This document shows positions 1,926 through 13,085 of a stretch of 34,559 nucleotides of DNA, piece after piece. Each line of letters opens with the position of its first letter. Position 1 is the stretch's first letter. The stretch lies in IMG/VR virus record IMGVR_UViG_2693429748_000009. One strand, 5' to 3'. Position numbers and translations under genes: made by a program. Under the pieces are notes generated by a model that was not told the origin of the DNA, did not search any database, and saw nothing but the letters and a program-made list of their open reading frames with translations. Origin of the DNA: a virus (taxonomy: Duplodnaviria; Heunggongvirae; Uroviricota; Caudoviricetes).

Positions 1926-3078
1926 CGAGCTGGCTGCGGCGCTGGGCAACGACCCGAATTTTGCGACCACCATGACTAACGCGCTTGCGGGTAAGCAACC
2001 GAAAGATGCCACCCTGACGGCGCTGGCCGGACTTACTACTGCGGCAGGCAAGTTTCCGTATTTTACGGGGAATGATGTCGCCAGCCTGGCAACCCTGACA
2101 AAAGTCGGGCGGGATATTCTTGCGAAATCGACCGTTGCTGCCGTTATCGAATACCTCGGTTTACGAGAACTCGGCACAAGCGGGGAGAAAATACCGTTAC
2201 TCAGTACAGCGAATACCTGGACTAATCGACAAACATTCAGCGGTGGCCTTTCTGGTGAACTATCCGGCAATGCTTCTACAGCTGCAAAATTAAAAACTGC
2301 CAGGAAAATAAGCAATGTGGCTTTTGATGGTTCCTCCGATATCACATTAAAAGCAAGTCATGTTGGTGCGTTTGCCTTAGGGAAAACAGGAAGCACCGTT
2401 GCGAATGATAAAGCAGTTGGATGGAACTGGAGTAGCGGAGCCTATAACGCAACTATTAGTGGTGCATCAACGTTAATTATTCATTTTTATATGGGAGAAG
2501 GAAGTTGTCCTGCAGCTCAGTTTCGGATTAATTATAAAAATGGCGGTATTTTTTATCGTTCAGCCCGTGATGGTTATGGTTTTGAAGCCGACTGGTCCGA
2601 ATTTTACACCACCAGAAAACCTTCAGCAGGAGATGTTGGTGCACTGCCGTTATCTGGTGGTCAACTGAATGGTGCACTGGGTATCGGAACATCCAGTGCT
2701 CTTGGCGGTAATTCGATTGTATTGGGTGATAATGACACGGGCTTTAAACAAAAAGGCGATGGTAATCTGGATGTTTATGCTAATAACGTCCATGTTATGC
2801 GCTTTGTCTCCGGAAGCATTCAAAGTAATAAAACCATAAATATTACGGGACGTGTTAATCCCTCGGATTACGGTAACTTTGATTCCCGCTATGTGAGAGA
2901 TGTCAGACTTGGCACACGAGTTGTTTAGACCATGAAGAAAGGCGTGATGTATGAAAAATCAGGCCATGTAATCACGGGGCTTGGTATTATCGGTGAAGTC
3001 GATGGTGATGATCCGGCAGTATTCAGACCAATACAAAAGTTAATTAACGGAACATGGTATAACGTATCGCAGGTATAA
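1926..3078 (+). pseudogene. Tail-fibre gene 3' portion (P2 H-like shared region followed by variable distal segment), 5' end lost in the gap, with an in-frame amber TAG at 2926..2928
   Basis: Translation ELAAALGNDPNF...AVIEYLGL matches the minus-strand H gene at 8569..9639 at about 98% nucleotide identity. After RLGTRVV comes TAG, then the same frame continues [49 protein letters not shown] to TAA at 3076..3078. That tail is the C-terminus kept in the other fibre cassettes (compare ...[17 protein letters not shown] at 6236). Confidence 0.7.
2144..2169. other. gix/pix-like 26-bp crossover site, variant, at the constant/variable junction of the fibre gene
   Basis: TTATCGAATACCTCGGTTTACGAGAA. 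Compare the gix-type consensus TTATCCAAAACCTCGGTTTACAGGAA (recalled from memory). Inverted relative to the sites at 7124 and 8614. Confidence 0.55.
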
Positions 3079-3080
3079 TC

Positions 3081-3614
3081 ATGCAGCATTTAAAAAACAT
3101 TGTCGCAGGTAATCCAAAAACCGTTGAACAATACCAGCTAACAAAGAATTTTGATGTTATCTGGTTATGGTCCGAAGATGGAAAAAATTGGCATGAGGAA
3201 TTAAAAAACTTTCAGGAGGATACAATAAAACTGGCTTACACAGTTGAGGGAATAATTATTGCTATAGACAAGGATGTATCAGCAATTAATCCAGAAGGTT
3301 TAAGTGTCGTTGAGTTGCCTGATATTACAGCAAATCGCCGGGCTGATATTTCGGGCAACTGGATGTTCAAAGATGGTGCGGTGATAAAGCGAACTTATAC
3401 CGAGGAAGAGCAAAGGCAACAAGCGGAAAATGAAAAGCAGAGCCTGCTGCAGCTCGTCAGGGATAAAACCCAGCTGTGGGACTCTCAGCTACAGCTGGGC
3501 ATCATTTCCGATGAGAATAAACAAAAATTAACCGAGTGGATGCTCTATGCGCAGAAGGTCGAATCCACAGACACCTCCAGCCTGCCAGTAACGTTTCCCG
3601 AACAACCAGAATGA
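3081..3614 (+). CDS. Tail-fibre assembly protein (Tfa; P2 G / Mu U family)
   Basis: 177 aa. C-terminal half is nearly identical to the Tfa at 5145..5678. The stop codon overlaps the IS600 left end. Confidence 0.8.
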
Positions 3615-3675
3615 GGTAGCCTGAGTTTAACGGACACTCCTTCCTGAAATAGAATGGCATCAGAAGGAGCTAATA

Positions 3676-3978
3676 ATGAGCAGAAAAACCCAACGTTACT
3701 CTAAAGAGTTCAAAGCCGAAGCTGTCAGAACGGTTCCTGAAAATCAACTTTCGATCAGTGAAGGCGCTTCCCGATTATCTCTTCCTGAAGGCACTTTAGG
3801 ACAATGGGTTACCGCCGCCAGAAAAGGGCTCGGTACTCCTGGTTCCCGCACGGTGGCTGAACTGGAATCTGAAATTCTGCAACTGCGTAAGGCGTTAAAT
3901 GAAGCTCGCCTTGAGCGAGATATATTAAAAAAAGCAACAGCGTATTTTGCACAGGAGTCGCTGAAAAATACGCGTTAA
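3676..3978 (+). CDS. IS600 OrfA
   Basis: 100 aa, one residue different from the copy at 715..1017. Confidence 0.85.
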   Translation: MSRKTQRYSKEFKAEAVRTVPENQLSISEGASRLSLPEGTLGQWVTAARKGLGTPGSRTVAELESEILQLRKALNEARLERDILKKATAYFAQESLKNTR

Positions 3979-4013
3979 TCGAACAATGGCGACAACAATT
4001 TCCCATTGAAGCG

Positions 4014-4832
4014 ATGTGTCAGGTATTTGGTGTATCCAGGAGCGGTTATTACAACTGGGTACAGCATGAACCCTCAGACAGAAAACAAAGTGATGAGCGG
4101 CTAAAACTGGAGATTAAGGTGGCACATATCCGCACTCGCGAAACATATGGAACCCGGCGGCTCCAGACGGAGCTGGCAGAGAATGGCATCATCGTTGGTC
4201 GTGACCGACTGGCACGTCTTCGTAAGGAGCTAAGGCTACGCTGTAAGCAGAAACGCAAGTTCAGAGCGACTACGAACTCGAACCACAATCTGCCAGTTGC
4301 GCCAAATCTGCTGAACCAGACGTTCGCTCCTACAGCACCAAATCAGGTCTGGGTGGCGGACCTGACGTATGTTGCCACACAGGAGGGATGGTTGTACCTC
4401 GCTGGCATCAAAGATGTTTATACGTGCGAAATTGTCGGCTACGCCATGGGAGAGCGCATGACAAAAGAGCTGACAGGTAAAGCCCTGTTTATGGCGCTCA
4501 GGAGCCAGCGCCCACCTGCCGGGCTAATCCACCACTCTGATCGAGGTTCACAGTACTGCGCATACGATTACCGGGTCATACAGGAGCAGTCTGGTCTGAA
4601 AACATCAATGTCGCGTAAAGGTAACTGTTACGACAACGCTCCGATGGAAAGCTTCTGGGGAACGCTGAAAAATGAGAGCCTGAGCCACTATCGTTTTAAT
4701 AACCGGGATGAAGCCATCTCAGTAATACGGGAATACATTGAGATTTTCTACAATCGTCAGCGTCGTCACTCTCGTCTGGGGAATATCTCCCCGGCAGCCT
4801 TCAGGGAAAAATATCATCAGATGGCTGCTTAA
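4014..4832 (+). CDS. IS600 OrfB
   Basis: 272 aa, identical to the copy at 1053..1871. Confidence 0.8.
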   Translation: MCQVFGVSRSGYYNWVQHEPSDRKQSDERLKLEIKVAHIRTRETYGTRRLQTELAENGIIVGRDRLARLRKELRLRCKQKRKFRATTNSNHNLPVAPNLLNQTFAPTAPNQVWVADLTYVATQEGWLYLAGIKDVYTCEIVGYAMGERMTKELTGKALFMALRSQRPPAGLIHHSDRGSQYCAYDYRVIQEQSGLKTSMSRKGNCYDNAPMESFWGTLKNESLSHYRFNNRDEAISVIREYIEIFYNRQRRHSRLGNISPAAFREKYHQMAA

Positions 4833-6235: not shown

Positions 6236-7141
6236 TTAAACACTCCCCACGTTGTACCATATTCCCCCAATCAATTTCTGAATTGGCCTTCTGGCAACAG
6301 TGTCGACAATATCATCCGCATTGCTGTTAATTGCGGCTGTTAAAACATAACCTGACGCATCGCCAAAGCCGTAGTCGCGCCATACGTTTTTATATTCAAT
6401 GCTGCCAAGACGAATATCCCGAACGACATGATTATGCAGCCATGTGCTTAACCAGTTGTTTTCCCACACTGAACCATAAATATCGCCACTAGACGCAACT
6501 TGCGCACCACTTCCCAGCGCAAATCCCCCATCTGTTTTAAAAATGAAATCACCACCACCATCTGAACCGTTATTAATATGAACACCATCACCACCGTTAT
6601 CTTTCCACAAAAACATACGAATTCTTCCGTCTTCGTTGGCGAATGTAATGTGGTGGCGGTAATTACTTTTTAATCTAAAATTGCTGCCATTAGATTCAAT
6701 ATCTTTATAAAGATGTAATCCTAACTCATCAATATGTCCGATGCGCGAACCATTTGAATAGAAGCTAATAATACCATCTCCATCTTGCCTAAATCCGGTG
6801 TCGTTATCTCCCAGAACAATGGAGTTTTCACCCAGTGCGTTATCAGTAGCTCCAATAGCTAGACCTCCTTTAATTTTGGCCCCGTGGCTGACAGATATAG
6901 CACCTGTTCTCAGATTTATAGCGAATGGCCTTAATGGGCCGATATTACCGTTTTCGCCTTGTCCTTCAGCCGTCGGAATGAAATGAAGAAAATCTTCTGA
7001 ACGACGGAAAATTAGACCGAAGGTATCATTGAAAATTCGCAGCGCATTCACCGTGCCAATTTTCAGTTCTCCGGTCATTTTATCGCCGGAACGCTGAACG
7101 GCGTTACCAGCCTTGTTTACCGTTTCCTGTAAACCGAGGTT
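6236..7141 (-). CDS. Alternative tail-fibre C-terminal cassette with no start codon of its own; would be expressed only after fusion to the constant part of the fibre gene by inversion
   Basis: Minus-strand frame is open from just below the stop at 7142..7144 and reads [29 protein letters not shown]...[18 protein letters not shown]. Its first codons are encoded by the crossover site at 7124..7149. Confidence 0.7.
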
Positions 7142-7149
7142 TTAGATAA
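7124..7149. other. gix/pix-like 26-bp crossover site next to the invertase gene
   Basis: TTCCTGTAAACCGAGGTTTTAGATAA, one mismatch to the recalled gix consensus. The outer half-site carries an in-frame TAA, as expected for the invertase-proximal site. Confidence 0.65.
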
Positions 7150-7203
7150 TGGCGGTTTCTGGCCTGCATGGCATGATTTGTGCTTTTGGACGGGAGATTC
7201 AGC

Positions 7204-7436
7204 GTGCTGATTGGCTATGTAAGGGTATCAACAAATGACCAGAATACAGACCTGCAACGAAACGCTCTTGTTTGTGCAGGATATGAACAAATATTTGAAG
7301 ATAAATTAAGCGGAACAAGGACAGGCCGACCTGGATTAAAACGTGCTTTAAAGCGCCTTCAAAAAGGTGACGCACTGGTTGTCTGAAAACTGGACTGACT
7401 GGGTCACTGTATGCGGCATCTTGTCGTGCTGGTGGT
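7204..7436 (+). pseudogene. pin: Pin/Gin/Hin-family serine DNA invertase, inactivated: two nonsense codons then truncation into a tfa 3' remnant
   Basis: GTG-start frame MLIGYVRVSTNDQNTDLQRNALVCAGYEQIFEDKLSGTRTGRPGLKRALKRLQKGDALVV reaches TGA at 7384..7386 where Trp is expected; a second TGA at 7396..7398. At about 7437 the frame merges into tfa-derived sequence. Confidence 0.75.
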
Positions 7437-7531
7437 GGAAGCCTAGAAAAAGTATCGGGTGTTGCTGAACCGTGTTGATACATCAACTGCACCTGATATT
7501 GAGTGGCCTACGAACCCTGTCAGGGAGTAAT
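7437..7531 (+). repeat. tfa 3'-end remnant (copy 1 of a 72-bp direct repeat) fused downstream of the pin pseudogene
   Basis: Encodes (E)[23 protein letters not shown]..., a lambda-Tfa-like C-terminus. Repeated at 8486..8557 with two mismatches. Confidence 0.7.
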
Positions 7532-7584
7532 CATTGGGATTATGCCGCAGCACGTCTTAAGCAAGAACGTGCTGCGGTTGGATG

Positions 7585-8253
7585 CTATTTTTTCCCTGAA
7601 GCGGAAAACATTACTACAGTACCTTGAACCCTGGTTTTAACATTCTCGAAATGCTCTGAGAGTATATGTGTTAAGCCTTCTTCGGAATCTTTTGTGTTTG
7701 AAAAGATGCCTTTCTGATTGTAAATGCGCATCAGTTTTTGACCGAAGCTATTGTGCACAACTCCATCGCCAAGAATTGTGGCTCCGTATAGAGTTCCATC
7801 ATCAGTTAAGGCCTGCGCCGCATTGCGTATTACACAGCTTTTTGTAGATATATTTCCAGGCAGGCAGTGAAGAAGGTAAAACATGGAAATGGAATCAAAT
7901 TGACCATGTAACGCCGCGGGATAAGGTTCAAAAACATCATGGCTAATTTTATGTTTAATTTTTGATTCCCCAGCCCTTGTAGATGCCGCGTTCAGGCTAG
8001 CTTCGTTCAAATCCATTAAAGATATCAGACTACTCTCAGGTACGTGAGTAAGGTAAAACCCAGTTCCAACACCAATATCCAGATGGTTGTTACCTAAATG
8101 TTCCAGAAAGTGTGGAAGAAGGTGTTCCTTTGTAGGACATCCCCATGCAAGCCGATTTGATACTCCCAAAACCCACCAGTCATAAAGCTTTAGGGTAAGT
8201 GGTGTGTAAATTTTAGCCCCATCATCTGTGTTTTTTTTCATTAATTTCACCAT
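7585..8253 (-). CDS. Class-I SAM-dependent methyltransferase (small-molecule/RNA type, not an obvious DNA methyltransferase), AT-rich
   Basis: 222 aa with motif I LDIGVGTGFY. No DPPY/NPPY or C5-methyltransferase motifs seen. Low GC compared with its neighbours. Alternative start at 8241. Confidence 0.7.
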   Translation of the reverse strand: MVKLMKKNTDDGAKIYTPLTLKLYDWWVLGVSNRLAWGCPTKEHLLPHFLEHLGNNHLDIGVGTGFYLTHVPESSLISLMDLNEASLNAASTRAGESKIKHKISHDVFEPYPAALHGQFDSISMFYLLHCLPGNISTKSCVIRNAAQALTDDGTLYGATILGDGVVHNSFGQKLMRIYNQKGIFSNTKDSEEGLTHILSEHFENVKTRVQGTVVMFSASGKK

Positions 8254-8355
8254 ATTATAGTTTTATTTGTGAATTAAATCAATTATGGCGATGAATTACA
8301 AGGGGTTAAATGCTGCCGCAGCATAGCGATATTGAAATAGCCTAGTATGCTTCGA

Positions 8356-8557
8356 TACAGCAGGAGCCGAATGGCTGGAAGACCGTCACCACACAGTTCT
8401 ACATCCAGGAATTTAGTGAGTATATTGCGCCACTGCAGGATGCTGTAGATCTGGAGATCGCAACGGAGGAAGAAAACTCGTTGCTGGAAGCCTGGAAGAA
8501 GTATCGGGTGTTGCTGAACCGTGTTGATACATCAACTGCACCTGATATTGAGTGGCC
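8356..8557 (+). pseudogene. Tail-fibre assembly gene 3' fragment (copy 2 of the 72-bp repeat), running into the gap
   Basis: Frame ...[49 protein letters not shown], lambda Tfa C-terminus-like; upstream in-frame TAG. Confidence 0.6.
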
Positions 8558-8568
8558 NNNNNNNNNNN
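8558..8568. other. Assembly gap (11 N)
   Basis: Run of n characters. Confidence 0.99.
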
Positions 8569-9639
8569 GCCGTTCTGGTTTTTCTGTAATGCGCCAGAAG
8601 CCTGATTTACCGTTTCCTGTAAACCGAGGTATTCGATAACGGCGGCAACGGTCGATTTCGCAAGAATATCCCGCCCGACTTTTGTCAGGGTTGCCAGGCT
8701 GGCGACATCATTCCCCGTAAAATACGGAAACCTGTCTGCCGCAGTAGTAAGTCCGGCCAGCGCCGTCAGGGTGGCATCTTTCGGTTGCTTACCCGCAAGC
8801 GCGTTAGTCATGGTGGTCGCAAAATTCGGGTCGTTGCCCAGCGCCGCCGCCAGCTCGTTCAGTGTGTTCAGTGCATCAGGCGAAGAGTCTACAAGTGCGG
8901 CAATCGCAGCCATAACGAAAGCCGTGCTTGCGATTTGGGTATTATTCGTTCCCTGTCGCGCAGTTGGTGTTGTTGGCGTTCCGGTCAGTGCCGGGCTGTT
9001 TAATGGGGCTTTCTTGTTCGTTTCATCCATTACTGCCTTAACGGCTTTTGGTGTCGCTGCCAGCGTTTCAGACGTGCTGTTGGTGGCGTTGCTGAGCTGG
9101 ACAAGGCCTTTTGCGGTCAGCGAGGCGTCCGGGTGACGTCGTGACTGTTCATGCTCTTTCAGTTTGTCATCCACGTAATTCACTGTGGCCATCACCATGG
9201 TGTTATCCACGGTAAGCGCCACAGTGGCAGTGCTGGATACGGTCAGAATGGTGCGAAATGTTTGTGCACGTCCGGATCCTTCGGCAACGGTTGGCTTGTA
9301 ACTTTCGGCAGTATTGCCTACCGCGATCAAATCGCCGTGCTCATCAAACACACCAATTTCCCGGATCCAGAATCCGCCCGTTTCAGGAGGAATAACCAGC
9401 TCCGCAATAATGTGGTTCTGATGTGTTGCGTCCAGGGTGACGCGATTAACGGTATGTCGCCACACCTCATGCACAAGACGGGTCTGCTTACTGTCTGGCG
9501 TGGGTAAAGTACCGCCGCCGTCACCCACGGCCATATGTGTCAGGCGGACAGGTTTCCCATCTGGCGCGGTTGCCTGCGCTAATTTTTTTGCACCCGTATC
9601 GGTGATAATGGTTTTAAATTTTCGTGTTGTGGTACTCAT
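8569..9639 (-). CDS. P2 gpH-like tail fibre, N-terminal and shared part; 3' end lost in the gap
   Basis: MSTTTRKFKTIITDTGAKKL... with repeated LTAKG/SATNSTSETLAATPKAVK-type motifs. Sits after gpI/gpJ as in P2. The ORF-track residues beyond the gap are artefact. Confidence 0.8.
8614..8639. other. gix/pix-like 26-bp crossover site inside the P2-like H gene
   Basis: TTCCTGTAAACCGAGGTATTCGATAA on the plus strand; codes ...[11 protein letters not shown] on the minus strand. Confidence 0.6.
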
Positions 9640-9641
9640 GC

Positions 9642-10172
9642 TTAATCGTCCGGATAAATGGTAATGACTTCACCGTCGTAAGTTGCTGCTGCCGCGAAAA
9701 TATCTCCCTGAATCTCCTGAATGATATTCAGCCCTGTCATGTGGCGGCTGACCGGGCGGGCATCAGCAATCAACCGCTCCATTTCCAGATACATTTCCTC
9801 CGTCACGCCACTGTCCAGCGTGCCAACATCAATCTTGAATGTTCCGGGTTCGCCGTTGAACTCCCACCACTCAGACACGCGAATGAGGTATCCCAGCGGC
9901 TCAATGGCCCGTCGCAGGGCGCTGATGGTTCCTTTGTGTCGGTGTATCAGCCATGCATCACGAATCACCTGTCGCTTTGTCTCTTCCGGCCAGTTGCGAT
10001 CCCAGCGGTCAACGGAAAACGCCCAGGCGAGATAAGGCAGCAGATGCACCGGGCAGGTGTCCGGCGACCACAGCGTGTTGAGGTCTGCCGGAATGTCTGT
10101 AATGCGTGTTCCGACGGCTTCGGCACAACGCATGAAATTGCTGGCTGATGGTGGTAACAGTGAATTACTCAT
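9642..10172 (-). CDS. Baseplate assembly protein (P2 gpI-like)
   Basis: Synteny plus motif LAWAFSVDRWD. Start chosen at MSNSLLPP. Confidence 0.75.
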   Translation of the reverse strand: MSNSLLPPSASNFMRCAEAVGTRITDIPADLNTLWSPDTCPVHLLPYLAWAFSVDRWDRNWPEETKRQVIRDAWLIHRHKGTISALRRAIEPLGYLIRVSEWWEFNGEPGTFKIDVGTLDSGVTEEMYLEMERLIADARPVSRHMTGLNIIQEIQGDIFAAAATYDGEVITIYPDD

Positions 10173-11061
10173 TACGCCCACCTTCGCTGATGGTGAATGA
10201 CTCACAGCGCGCCGCCTGTATGTCGCTGATGGCCATATTCTGTGTGGGTTCGATTATCTCCACGCGTTGCACACCGTGCACATGCAGTGCGGCAGCAATG
10301 GCGGACAACGCCACGTCCTGACCGATAAGCCCCTGCTCAGCCAGCCACTTCCTGAACGACGATTCAGCCGCAGCCAGAATAGGTTCGGATTCCGGACCGG
10401 GGTAAAAGTACAGTTTTGCATTCAGCCGCCATGTCACGATTCTGGCACTCTGTACGGTCAGGCGGTCGGCCACCGGGCGGGTATCCTCTGCATTCAGAAC
10501 GGCGCGAACGGTATTAAGCAACGCCTCCGTTGCTGTGCCGTCGCCCTCAGTGGACAGGATGGAAACCGTCACATTTGCCGGAGACGGACTGATGGCCCGC
10601 GCATCGCGCACCAGACCGCTGGCGCTGCGGGCAAAATACTCGTATGCGCCTGACGGGCCTGCAACACTCAGGCCGTCATACGCCCGCTGCGCCCGCAGTC
10701 TCAGCGAGGTGTCGTTCTCCATCACCACGTCGGTGGTATCCGTTGCCGGAGTGATAACCAGGCGCTTTGTGTTCATATTGCCCGCGAGGTTGTCCAGGTC
10801 TGTTCCGGCGCTGTGGCTCAACATGCAGGCGCGTGCGGCCTCATTGACCCGCTGGCGTAACAGCATTTCACGAAACGACATGGTTTGAGCGATAACGTTC
10901 AGGGGTTCCGATTCCAGTTCCAGTGCGGCGGAGACGACTTCACGCTGTTCGGCGGGATAAGCTGCAATCATCATGGCCTTTGTGTCAGCCAGAATTGCCT
11001 CAAAGTCAGGCTCCGCGATGATGGCGGGTTCCGGTAACTGGGAAAGGTCAACGGCAGGCAT
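10165..11061 (-). CDS. Baseplate assembly protein J (P2 gpJ-like)
   Basis: 298 aa, position between W and I. Confidence 0.75.
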   Translation of the reverse strand: MPAVDLSQLPEPAIIAEPDFEAILADTKAMMIAAYPAEQREVVSAALELESEPLNVIAQTMSFREMLLRQRVNEAARACMLSHSAGTDLDNLAGNMNTKRLVITPATDTTDVVMENDTSLRLRAQRAYDGLSVAGPSGAYEYFARSASGLVRDARAISPSPANVTVSILSTEGDGTATEALLNTVRAVLNAEDTRPVADRLTVQSARIVTWRLNAKLYFYPGPESEPILAAAESSFRKWLAEQGLIGQDVALSAIAAALHVHGVQRVEIIEPTQNMAISDIQAARCESFTISEGGRNE

Positions 11062-11064
11062 GAT

Positions 11065-11415
11065 TTACTCCCTCAGCGTGATGGTTAATTCAACATTCTG
11101 CATGGTCTGCATGACAGTGCCCGACAGCGTCACCCCGGCGTGGCCTCCTGCCTTCCAGACAACGTCGATGGCGTTCAGGGCAATGCGTGGTTCCCATCGT
11201 GTCAGTGCAATCACGGTAGCACTCATGCATTGCAGACGCGTGGTGTTATTCATGGGTTCGTCAATCAAATCAGGCACAAGGCTGCCATATTCCCGTCGCA
11301 TAACCCGGCTTGCCAGCGGGGTGGTCAGGATGTCCCTGACTGACTGTTTCAGGTGCGCCATATCGTTCAGGTTTCCCGTCCCGTCCGGGTTCATTCCTGT
11401 GTAGCGGGTTGTCAC
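11065..11415 (-). CDS. Baseplate protein W (P2 gpW / gp25-like)
   Basis: 116 aa, synteny. Confidence 0.7.
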   Translation of the reverse strand: MTTRYTGMNPDGTGNLNDMAHLKQSVRDILTTPLASRVMRREYGSLVPDLIDEPMNNTTRLQCMSATVIALTRWEPRIALNAIDVVWKAGGHAGVTLSGTVMQTMQNVELTITLRE

Positions 11416-11993
11416 TGCGGGCCTCCTGTCGAATCGCTGCCACCTTTAACGCCACCGTGCTTATGCGTATGCACTGTGATGCCGTTTGAGGTGAAATCGC
11501 CGCCGCTGTGCGTGATATTGCCGCTCATCGTTCCCCCTTTTGTGACGTCAAGCGTCGCTGTTCTCAGAAGGTCTGTGCATTCCACGACAGGCGTGTTCAG
11601 TGTCACGCTGATGGATGCCTGCAAAGTGGCCGTTTTCATGCCGCTTGCGCTCAGTGCGCCTGCGTCCGCGTCGTAGCGGAACACCGCGCCGTCCGGCGCG
11701 CTGACCACGATTTCTTTCAGGCTTTTGCCGGGTGCCGGAATGGCATCACTCCACAGGCTGCCGATTATCATGGCGGTTTCCGGGTTGCCGCCGATGCAGG
11801 CAATTGCCACCTGTTCGCCTGGTGATGGCGGAAACCACACGTTGAAGTCTCCCGCGCGCGTGGTGTTCCAGCGCAGCCAGCCTGTTTCCAGTTCGCCGCT
11901 GCGAACGCGCACGCACCAGGATTCCTCATCAACTTCAGAGATGATCCCGGTGCGGATGATATTGCTCAGCAGTCGCATGAGTTCTGCGCTCAT
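11412..11993 (-). CDS. Baseplate spike/assembly protein V (P2 gpV-like)
   Basis: 193 aa, synteny; glycine-rich C-terminus. Confidence 0.7.
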   Translation of the reverse strand: MSAELMRLLSNIIRTGIISEVDEESWCVRVRSGELETGWLRWNTTRAGDFNVWFPPSPGEQVAIACIGGNPETAMIIGSLWSDAIPAPGKSLKEIVVSAPDGAVFRYDADAGALSASGMKTATLQASISVTLNTPVVECTDLLRTATLDVTKGGTMSGNITHSGGDFTSNGITVHTHKHGGVKGGSDSTGGPQ

Positions 11994-12625
11994 CGTACAG
12001 CCTCCGCAATCCGGCCCAGCACCGTGTTATAAATCAGGCGCTCATCTGCCTGGCTGATACCCAGCAGCTCACGTACCGGGTAATCGGTGAAAATGCCCGG
12101 CGCAACCTGATCGCGCTCACCGAACTGATGAACGCGTGCAATACGTGCGGCCACGCCGCTGTAACCCACCGTCACACCGGAAGCATCTGCACGGGCTTTC
12201 AGGTAGCGGGCGGTGCGCAGTTTTACGAACATGGAGACGCGCCTGGTGCTGTCCTGGTTGATGCGCCGGGTGCGTATTTCCAGAAAACGGTCGATGTCAT
12301 CCCGGTAAAACGTGCGGATATTGTTTTTATCCTCATCCCACCCGGTGATGGTTCGCCCGTATTTCCCCGTGTCGTGATGCCAGTTTTTCAGCGTGCGTGC
12401 TTCGTTATTCCAGATAAAGCGAATGCGCTCCTGTATCCGGGTTACGCGGCGTCTGCGTGGTGTCCATGCGGTCCCGTCCGGCGCTTTCTGTGACCGGATA
12501 CGCGCCTGCTGGGCGCGGCGTAAATCCTGTGCCAGCTTTCTGGCGATGTTATTAATGGCCTGCTGATTCAGGCTGTCGCGGATAGCCTCAAAGGTTTCAT
12601 CCACGCGGGTGAATGCCTTATCCAT
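11990..12625 (-). CDS. Phage virion morphogenesis / tail completion protein (gpS-like)
   Basis: 211 aa, position between V and R. Confidence 0.6.
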   Translation of the reverse strand: MDKAFTRVDETFEAIRDSLNQQAINNIARKLAQDLRRAQQARIRSQKAPDGTAWTPRRRRVTRIQERIRFIWNNEARTLKNWHHDTGKYGRTITGWDEDKNNIRTFYRDDIDRFLEIRTRRINQDSTRRVSMFVKLRTARYLKARADASGVTVGYSGVAARIARVHQFGERDQVAPGIFTDYPVRELLGISQADERLIYNTVLGRIAEAVR

Positions 12626-13085
12626 CGCTTTCCCCCCACGTCACATCCTGGAATACATGCGACCAGTCGCCTTCGGAAGAGGGCAGGCGGGGTTTTGGCT
12701 CCGGCAGGTGTTCTGCCTGCGGTGTGCCCTGACTGCTGCGCGTGATGCGAACGCGTTCCCGCAGGGGGAGCGTAAACAGGAGATCGGCGCTGTCATCGTC
12801 ATTGATAACGGCGGAAAATTTGATGTCCTGATTACGCTCCGGATTGAGCAACAACTGTGGCTGATTTTCGGATAACCACGCCAGCAGCGGCAGCGTGAGG
12901 TCGTCCAGCTCTCCGGCGTAATCCATGACAAACATCACTATCTGATAGCGGTAAACAAACGATGGGGTTTCTCCGGTCGTTTCAATGTTGCCGCTCTCCA
13001 CGAAAATGGTGAATTTTTCCGGGTTGGCATGACACCACCGGCATGAACGGGTCATGGCTTCACGCAGGGAATCAGTTTTCAGCAT
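12618..13085 (-). CDS. Tail completion protein (P2 gpR-like)
   Basis: 155 aa, synteny. Confidence 0.65.
   Translation of the reverse strand: MLKTDSLREAMTRSCRWCHANPEKFTIFVESGNIETTGETPSFVYRYQIVMFVMDYAGELDDLTLPLLAWLSENQPQLLLNPERNQDIKFSAVINDDDSADLLFTLPLRERVRITRSSQGTPQAEHLPEPKPRLPSSEGDWSHVFQDVTWGESDG

Follow-up and report, generated by a model that had tools for sequence, protein, structure and literature searches.

The locus examined here raises the question of how a methyltransferase gene came to lie between two direct repeats, next to the remains of a DNA invertase, in a region of tail-fibre genes, and what its product may do there. It occupies positions 7437 to 8557 of a viral DNA of 34,559 nucleotides (IMG/VR record IMGVR_UViG_2693429748_000009, referred to below as the window), which corresponds to NCBI scaffold CXBM01000039.1 of assembly GCA_001260235.1 and contains 11-N runs at 1915-1925 and 8558-8568. 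The locus is interpreted, with a probability of about 0.8, as the tfa'-ybcY-tfaX cargo cassette of lambdoid prophages, which carries a methyltransferase of the small-molecule/lipid type and is exchanged via tfa ends. Here the cassette is located distally in a lambdoid prophage that has decayed, with an IS-riddled invertible fibre segment and a dead invertase.

Judging by its sequence, the methyltransferase gene is the intact orthologue of ybcY (b0562) of Escherichia coli K-12. Positions 7433-8556 of the window align over 1124 bp, with 97% identity, to the K-12 segment running from the tfaD 3' end through ybcY to tfaX (positions 7001-8122 of the K-12 sequence compared). The only gap in this alignment is one of 2 bp, the proteins being otherwise collinear; since the deletion removes the conserved ATG, ybcY is called a pseudogene in K-12, whereas its reading frame in the window is intact. 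The gene order in K-12 is tfaD (b0561), ybcY (b0562, pseudogene), tfaX (b0563), appY, ompT and the end of the cryptic prophage DLP12, and the gene, its orientation, the flanking tfa 3' ends, the hairpin and the promoter spacer are all as in the window. The two loci differ in the left flank, which is a 187-aa tfaD in DLP12 and about 32 tfa codons fused to a dead pin in the window, and in the tfaX-like fragment, which in the window has a nonsense codon and ends at a scaffold gap. A previous reading of the window, made from the sequence only, had found a non-DNA-type methyltransferase at a fibre/invertase locus unexplained; the structure turns out to be a standard, widely annotated one (DLP12 tfaD-ybcY-tfaX), and the arrangement is already known both from the K-12 annotation and from the RefSeq annotation of thousands of genomes. 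Meanwhile, the literature on ybcY consists of incidental mentions only, and searches with RefSeq protein accessions and phage names yielded nothing useful. A ybcY mutant of K-12 showed no effect in an Hha toxicity assay, the K-12 copy being the one without a start codon. This start-codon lesion of the laboratory strain may be the reason why ybcY was never characterised.

The sequence-only reading had turned to prophage e14 for comparison and, in particular, to its gene ymfD. Like the cassette, e14 has accessory genes past its invertase/tail-fibre module, close to the attachment site, and its YmfD (b1137), a protein of approximately 221 aa, likewise carries the annotation of a putative SAM methyltransferase. 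However, YmfD has no detectable similarity to YbcY (best BLASTP E=14) and was rejected as a homologue; the K-12 counterpart is ybcY of DLP12. The gene mcrA, which we take to lie beyond pinE on the e14 map, would hold a position analogous to that of ybcY. McrA is a nuclease and not a methyltransferase.

The listed ORF (7585..8253, minus strand) specifies a product of 222 aa that contains motif I as LDIGVGTG and matches Pfam Methyltransf_12, Methyltransf_23, Methyltransf_25 and Methyltransf_11 above their thresholds, which bears out the earlier call of a class I methyltransferase. Translation is predicted to start at the second ATG (8241) rather than at 8253, giving a gene of 7585..8241 (minus strand) and a protein of 218 aa, because the first ATG directly adjoins the predicted -10 box, the methionine of the second one (M5) is invariant across 44 homologues, and the alignment to the PHROG profile begins at residue 5. 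The DIGVGTG motif occupies residues 59-65, and D59, G61, G63, T64 and G65 are invariant in the 44-sequence alignment, as is D81, the acidic residue that ends strand 2; an N-terminal Y-D-W-W...N...W-C block and an LLHCLPG motif are also conserved. Thus motif I of the form (D/E)xGxGxG, the strand-2 acidic residue and the seven-stranded Rossmann-like fold that define class I SAM methyltransferases are all found in YbcY, for which AlphaFold (AF2) gave a model with a pLDDT of 89.4 and a pTM of 0.86.

The best Foldseek matches of this model in the PDB were the bacterial PE N-methyltransferase 8ys9, insect JHAMT and Plasmodium phosphoethanolamine methyltransferases (12-21% identity), while the sequence/profile search of the PDB returned JHAMT (E 1.4e-5) and UbiG as the best matches. 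The enzymes with solved structures (8ys9, JHAMT 7ec0, 3uj7, UbiG 4kdr) share only 12-22% identity with YbcY, and since the structural scores are no better than those of dozens of enzymes with unrelated substrates, no substrate can be transferred from them. YbcY matches PHROG 2132 with E=1.9e-156, a family annotated as 'unknown function'; the NCBIfam search gave only sub-threshold matches to CpaM and RquA, and the viral structure library was uninformative for this protein.

Enzymes that methylate DNA are common in phages, and the flat list of structural matches does include CmoA, Trm9 and an mRNA cap methyltransferase, so that an anti-restriction or epigenetic DNA or RNA methyltransferase has to be weighed. 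In agreement with the sequence-only reading, no DPPY/NPPY ((D/N/S)PP(Y/F/W)) or PCQ motif occurs in YbcY. Its one ENV tripeptide, at residue 203, lies outside any C5 context, no DNA methyltransferase is present among the top structural matches, and the structural neighbours are small-molecule or lipid enzymes. A DNA methyltransferase was rejected on these motifs and fold neighbours, and a nucleic-acid substrate of either kind is considered highly improbable. From the sequence and the predicted structure, YbcY is firmly placed among cytoplasmic class I SAM methyltransferases of the small-molecule/lipid type rather than among nucleic-acid enzymes; this is an assignment of class and not of function, because the searches gave no substrate-specific family, no conserved neighbour and no informative fusion.

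The YbcY family comprises 1119 clusters (50% identity) at E below 1e-10, and a relative is encoded at 527 loci across GTDB species genomes. Members with 50-69% identity stand alone on the chromosome, outside any phage context; they are known from Enterobacter, Salmonella, Yersinia (Y. pestis among them), Erwinia, Pantoea, Proteus, the Pseudomonas syringae group and Xanthomonadales. The closest relatives (88-90%), in turn, are mobile and were found in a Citrobacter prophage remnant beside dinI and on a Salmonella plasmid. A chromosomal position outside any prophage, which would speak for a housekeeping enzyme and against an accessory one, therefore holds for the 50-69% homologues in Enterobacter, Salmonella and Yersinia, but not for the phage-, prophage- and plasmid-borne clade to which ybcY belongs. 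Clustering of the ORFs of 80 GTDB loci revealed no neighbour that recurs from genus to genus: dcp together with a ydfG-like gene is found beside the homologue in some Citrobacter/Enterobacter loci only, and the ydfG-like gene alone is present in Yersinia. The fusions were equally uninformative, with ten longer members carrying generic methyltransferase domains only and one fused to RCC1. The gene may have originated from a chromosomal one. Compared with the prophage copy from Citrobacter and the plasmid copy from Salmonella, the gene has a dN/dS ratio of 0.16-0.18, which indicates that YbcY is maintained by purifying selection. With respect to base composition, the claim that ybcY is clearly lower in GC than the fibre genes stands for one part of these genes only, its 40.8% being well below the P2-like constant part of the fibre (53.9%) and the window as a whole (51.5%), but only marginally below the adjacent variable fibre/tfa genes (42.7-45.6%).

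The two 72-bp direct repeats that had been noticed around the gene, 7437-7508 and 8486-8557 with two mismatches, were verified and are far above chance expectation; a repeat finder extends them to 76 bp with three mismatches (7433-7508 and 8482-8557). In complete genomes the repeat is longer and more diverged, 148 bp at 89% in strain JJ1886 and 157 bp at 85% in K-12, and in both strains it takes in the tfa stop codon as well as the GC-rich hairpin. Both copies in the window translate to a lambda-Tfa-like C-terminus. By translation and repeat search, copy 1 belongs to the last ∼32 codons and the stop codon of a lambda-Tfa-like gene and corresponds to the K-12 tfaD 3' end (7433..7530, plus strand). 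Copy 2 lies in a tfaX-like, 5'-truncated tfa pseudogene recognised by translation (8310..8557, plus strand), of which approximately 8415-8557 is derived from tfa and 8482-8557 is the repeat itself; this fragment has a TAG nonsense codon at 8343-8345 and is cut by the scaffold gap 21 nt short of its stop codon. In JJ1886, ATCC 25922 and E2865 the corresponding fragment is labelled by RefSeq as 'incomplete tail fiber assembly protein'. Among the tfa-end copies 96 of the 150 differences (64%) fall on codon position 3, an excess which argues that the flanking copies come from distinct functional tfa alleles and not from a decayed in-situ duplication. The direct repeats are accordingly read as tfa 3' ends from two distinct alleles. 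On the left stands the end of the resident tfa, whose body was probably lost here in the deletion that fused the tfa end to the invertase remnant (pin'), and on the right a 5'-truncated tfa fragment, the inner junction of which is fixed across all copies.

The same repeats can also be read as copies of a small-RNA gene (Rfam RF02111, 'IS009'), around which, rather than around tfa remnants, the cassette would be organised. Copy 2 scores 121 bits against this model at 8333-8536 (gathering threshold 117 bits) and copy 1 gives a partial match of 46 bits, while in K-12 the tfaD 3' end reaches 228 bits and tfaX 110 bits. The best of these matches, however, falls within the uninterrupted tfaD frame, where the sequence codes for the lambda-Tfa-like C-terminus, the differences follow the coding pattern described above and not one of base pairing, and the paired region spans only part of the 199 positions of the model. 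Because the family was seeded on tfaD coding sequence and the variation is in codon phase, membership in it is uninformative as to an RNA function, and an RNA-centred cassette seems very unlikely.

To the left of copy 1, the sequence-only reading had recognised a dead invertase, and this identification was upheld. A serine DNA invertase is reduced here to its N-terminal ∼76 codons (pin' pseudogene, 7204..7432, plus strand), with in-frame stops at 7384 and 7396 in the translation MLIGYVRVSTNDQ...DALVV*KLD*LGHCMRHLVVLVVE, and the same stretch is annotated by RefSeq in JJ1886 as an incomplete recombinase. The pin' remnant runs on in the same frame into the tfa 3' end, and the two meet at a short stretch of microhomology (CTGG/GGAAG). 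This exact arrangement of pin'::tfa, ybcY and tfa fragment was detected in 409 genomes, including the ST131 strain JJ1886, where it lies at the end of a lambdoid prophage in ompW, beside trp. In most genomes, on the other hand, an intact tfa stands to the left of ybcY, so the association with the dead invertase is attributable to a secondary deletion in one lineage and is not a feature of the cassette. The suggested link between methyltransferase and invertase is thus a secondary one, the left repeat being in most cases the 3' end of an intact tfa. Further upstream, at 7124..7149 (plus strand), lies a gix/pix-like crossover site of the invertible tail-fibre segment, which has an inverted partner at 2144-2169 (minus strand). 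A search with the crossover-site pattern found three sites where none were expected; the site forms part of direct repeat D2, and its core, CTGTAAACCGAGGTTTT, occurs in a paper on the target sites of the Gin recombinase.

At its other end the locus is limited by the second scaffold gap (8558..8568), which begins exactly where repeat copy 2 stops, and because of which the P2-like tail-fibre gene to its right is only putatively adjacent. Three assemblies with an identical protein have the cassette close to mlrA, where it is part of a prophage remnant and is situated 315 bp upstream of an ipaH-type (LRR+NEL) gene, and homology of the window to these mlrA-linked copies ends precisely at 8557. In the mlrA-linked loci and in a sister draft, copy 2 continues with GGAAGAACCAGACACAATGTAA, giving ...DIEWPEEPDTM*. 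The break in the contig at 8557 thus coincides with the point of divergence between genomic copies of a repeat of ∼1 kb. Sister drafts of the same project have several copies of the cassette linked by single Ns; for gene order they are unreliable. Such implausible multi-copy scaffolds, the presence of at least two cassette copies in the source genome, the end of copy 2 at the gap itself and the identity of the two copies, which at 97% exceeds that in JJ1886 (89%) and K-12 (85%), would all be compatible with the direct repeat being an assembly artefact, produced when a repeat was collapsed or chimerically joined at the end of a contig. The two-copy architecture is nevertheless also present in closed genomes and in phage genomes, and the copy-2 variant recurs in three gap-free Shigella-type loci, which makes an artefact exceedingly improbable.

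The gene is widespread. By megablast with the gene alone, ybcY was found in 3832 of 5426 complete E. coli genomes (∼70%, K-12 MG1655 included), in 1-4 copies and with at least 98% identity. The canonical order in closed genomes is J-lom-stf-tfa-ybcY (convergent)-tfa fragment-(alpha/beta hydrolase, ompT)-att; it is seen at potB in ATCC 25922 and at the DLP12 site in E2865, and in O157:H7 TW14359 an additional block of stress genes separates tfa from ybcY. In the lambdoid phages ev243, 2G7b and Kati, as well as in several PhiR isolates, ybcY lies between the fibre genes and int. The window, JJ1886, ATCC 25922, E2865, O157, K-12, ev243 and 2G7b all have ybcY distal to tfa and convergent with it, followed by a tfa fragment. 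The slot is always the cargo region that extends from the tail-fibre genes to the attachment site, in line with the published placement of phage cargo after the tail-fibre genes and beside att (PMC3530523). The view of the methyltransferase gene as an accessory module is therefore supported, ybcY being a prophage cargo gene of the tail fibre-att region. It resembles the morons and other exchangeable cargo of lambdoid phages, such as the T3SS effectors of the O157 Sp prophages or ompT and appY of DLP12, in being a putatively independent transcription unit of atypical GC content located between tfa and att, in a slot whose occupants differ between sister phages. It differs from them in encoding a metabolic-type methyltransferase and not a secreted effector or an outer-membrane protein, and in having duplicated tfa ends on either side; a strict empty-site pair was looked for and not found.

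How the cassette moves can be judged from its boundaries. In seven other contexts the homology breaks at window positions 7433/7457 and 8534/8556/8557, within the tfa ends, or at 7545/7572, in the hairpin. The hairpin travels with ybcY in all 16 contexts compared, including those that lack copy 1, and the left tfa end is present wherever tfa precedes ybcY (16 contexts). In each of the 15 contexts that have the right tfa fragment its inner end is 206 nt from ybcY, whereas the outer end is variable (reference positions 76, 98/99 and 171/176) and defines three sequence classes. Sister phages without ybcY have other cargo in its place: ev099 carries an AraC regulator and a transposase there, and 2B8 NleG, a tfa fragment, EspM2 and Ibe. 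A strict empty site, at which tfa would continue straight into the same downstream DNA, was not detected in the phage collection; wherever a phage has the hydrolase-linked right flank, ybcY is present too. As no such before-and-after pair was found, insertion is deduced from mosaicism. That the breakpoints keep to the tfa ends and the hairpin speaks for homologous recombination as the route of cassette exchange and sustains the proposal of a module inserted or exchanged at the tfa 3' boundary, the mechanism being a matter of inference. According to this scheme, a single ancestral event would have set ybcY together with its promoter beside a tfa end, spread and replacement coming later; the conserved tfa ends of ∼150 bp and the hairpin would serve as homology arms, through which general recombination between co-resident lambdoid phages may move or replace the cassette.

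The cassette also appears to bring its own transcription signals. A sigma-70-type promoter, TTGATT-17-TATAAT, with 10 of 12 consensus matches and followed by a GGTGA Shine-Dalgarno-like box, is predicted at 8254..8282 (minus strand), its TATAAT -10 box lying at 8254-8259. The stretch of ∼50-70 bp upstream of the gene, with TTGATT-17-TATAA(T/C) and the GGTGA box, is conserved in the chromosomal copies of Citrobacter meridianamericanus and Enterobacter hormaechei, and a promoter common to ybcY and its chromosomal homologues suggests that the gene was acquired promoter and all. In K-12 the ybcY-tfaX spacer is catalogued as a constitutive promoter site of the RpoD holoenzyme, TTGATT-17-TATAAC, and flagged as H-NS-bound (PMC3946193). 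On the opposite side, a GC-rich hairpin lies between the convergent stop codons of tfa and the methyltransferase gene (7544..7578), with a fold energy of -24 to -28 kcal/mol and z-scores of -4.4 on the plus and -3.8 on the minus strand. It is probably a bidirectional terminator; a simple terminator scan of the locus passed it over for want of a neighbouring T-run. The picture that emerges is one in which ybcY would constitute an AT-rich, self-contained, moron-like transcription unit, antiparallel to the late tail operon and ending at a hairpin shared with tfa. Since it has its own sigma-70 promoter and is directed against the late tail operon, it is probably expressed in the lysogen, where it may be subject to H-NS and act as a lysogenic-conversion or fitness gene.

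An anti-defence function, also put forward in the sequence-only reading, would have the methyltransferase neutralise a host immune signal or toxin during infection. The gene is indeed phage-borne and located in a variable accessory region among other host-interaction genes, and PADLOC returned one very weak match, to mad2 (E=0.0026, 14.6 bits). This match is not significant, however, and nothing else in the PADLOC search pointed to defence. The orientation and promoter of ybcY resemble those of a gene expressed in the lysogen rather than early in infection, its 50-69% homologues stand alone on chromosomes of many Gammaproteobacteria (Enterobacter, Salmonella, Yersinia, Erwinia, Pseudomonas) outside any phage or defence context, and intact ybcY persists in long-dead prophage remnants. 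Counter-defence cargo is accordingly regarded as improbable. As for a function in the lysogen, the top Foldseek matches, taken by themselves, suggest N-methylation of an ethanolamine/phosphoethanolamine-type amine, as carried out by PE N-methyltransferase and phosphoethanolamine methyltransferase, as a candidate reaction. That YbcY is a lysogenic-conversion enzyme methylating a host lipid head group or metabolite is a tentative and, at present, rather unlikely proposal.

With the cassette reading, the locus provides a clean example of tfa 3' ends and a hairpin acting as the cargo-swap junctions of lambdoid phages, in a slot occupied in other phages by T3SS effectors, ompT, appY or ipaH neighbours. 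As a structure it is ordinary, and the interest that remains is in what YbcY methylates, this being an intact, selectively maintained and promoter-bearing enzyme in most E. coli. If the lysogenic-conversion reading were true, envelope or stress properties would be altered by this enzyme in ∼70% of E. coli strains.

Two runs of 11 Ns (1915-1925 and 8558-8568) identify the window as a scaffold built from three or more contigs. Each gap lies beside repeated DNA, namely a copy of an IS3-family element at one and a tfa end together with a crossover site at the other, and the gene order across the two gaps is provisional. The IS3-family element occurs twice (715-1871 and 3676-4832), each copy with ORFs of 100 and 272 aa, and the two copies break up the side-tail-fibre genes of a lambdoid prophage. 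A P2-like prophage, encoding baseplate proteins V/W/J/I as well as tail, capsid, terminase and portal proteins, occupies the minus strand from 8569 to ∼30000; its fibre gene is cut by the scaffold gap at the crossover site.

Three gix/pix-like crossover sites were located in the window. The first (2144-2169, minus strand) and the second (7124-7149, plus strand) are inverted relative to each other and bracket an invertible stf/tfa segment of ∼5 kb, which is no longer able to flip because the serine invertase gene pin is dead. The third site (8614-8639, plus strand), which lies inside the P2-like fibre gene, is in direct orientation relative to the second, with an N gap between them.

The tfa 3' ends on either side of the methyltransferase gene ybcY match the Rfam model IS009 (RF02111), partially at 7408-7487 and above threshold at 8333-8536, as do positions 6857-7055 of the K-12 DLP12 locus. 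This model is in effect one of the tfa 3' coding region, and therefore every lambda-type tfa end will match it. A match to CssrB (chromosome-encoded Shigella sRNA B) at 7514-7576, which overlies the tfa-ybcY hairpin, stays below threshold, with 32.6 bits where the gathering score is 76. In the 5'-truncated tfaX-like fragment, positions 8343-8345 read TAG, whereas JJ1886 (E. coli ST131) and the other copies have TGG (Trp); hence the residual 89-aa tfaX-like ORF is also broken in the window strain. In K-12, ybcY (7153-7807 of the DLP12 locus) owes its pseudogene status solely to the loss of 2 bp (TTAATGAAAAAAAAC to TTAAT--AAAAAAAC), which abolishes the conserved start codon; its frame is otherwise intact.

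In three assemblies whose YbcY protein is identical to that of the window, an ipaH-type gene (LRR and NEL E3 ligase) lies 315 bp downstream of ybcY and is co-oriented with it (10001-12628 of each locus), the locus being a prophage remnant with yehU/yehT-like genes on one side and mlrA on the other. In O157:H7 TW14359, an inserted block between tfa and ybcY (2290-4503 of that locus) codes for a manganese catalase, two ferritin-like proteins and a general stress protein. This block presumably resembles the chromosomal katN/yciEFG cluster adjoining ompW, a likeness which would suggest the capture of att-adjacent host DNA. As for the chromosomal homologues, those of Erwinia, Pseudomonas, Yersinia and Salmonella have a GC content like that of their surroundings, while the “chromosomal” ones of Citrobacter and Enterobacter (L028, L031 and L016) are likewise AT-rich (39-43% GC versus 49-51% for the locus). 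The enteric chromosomal copies may themselves be old acquisitions.
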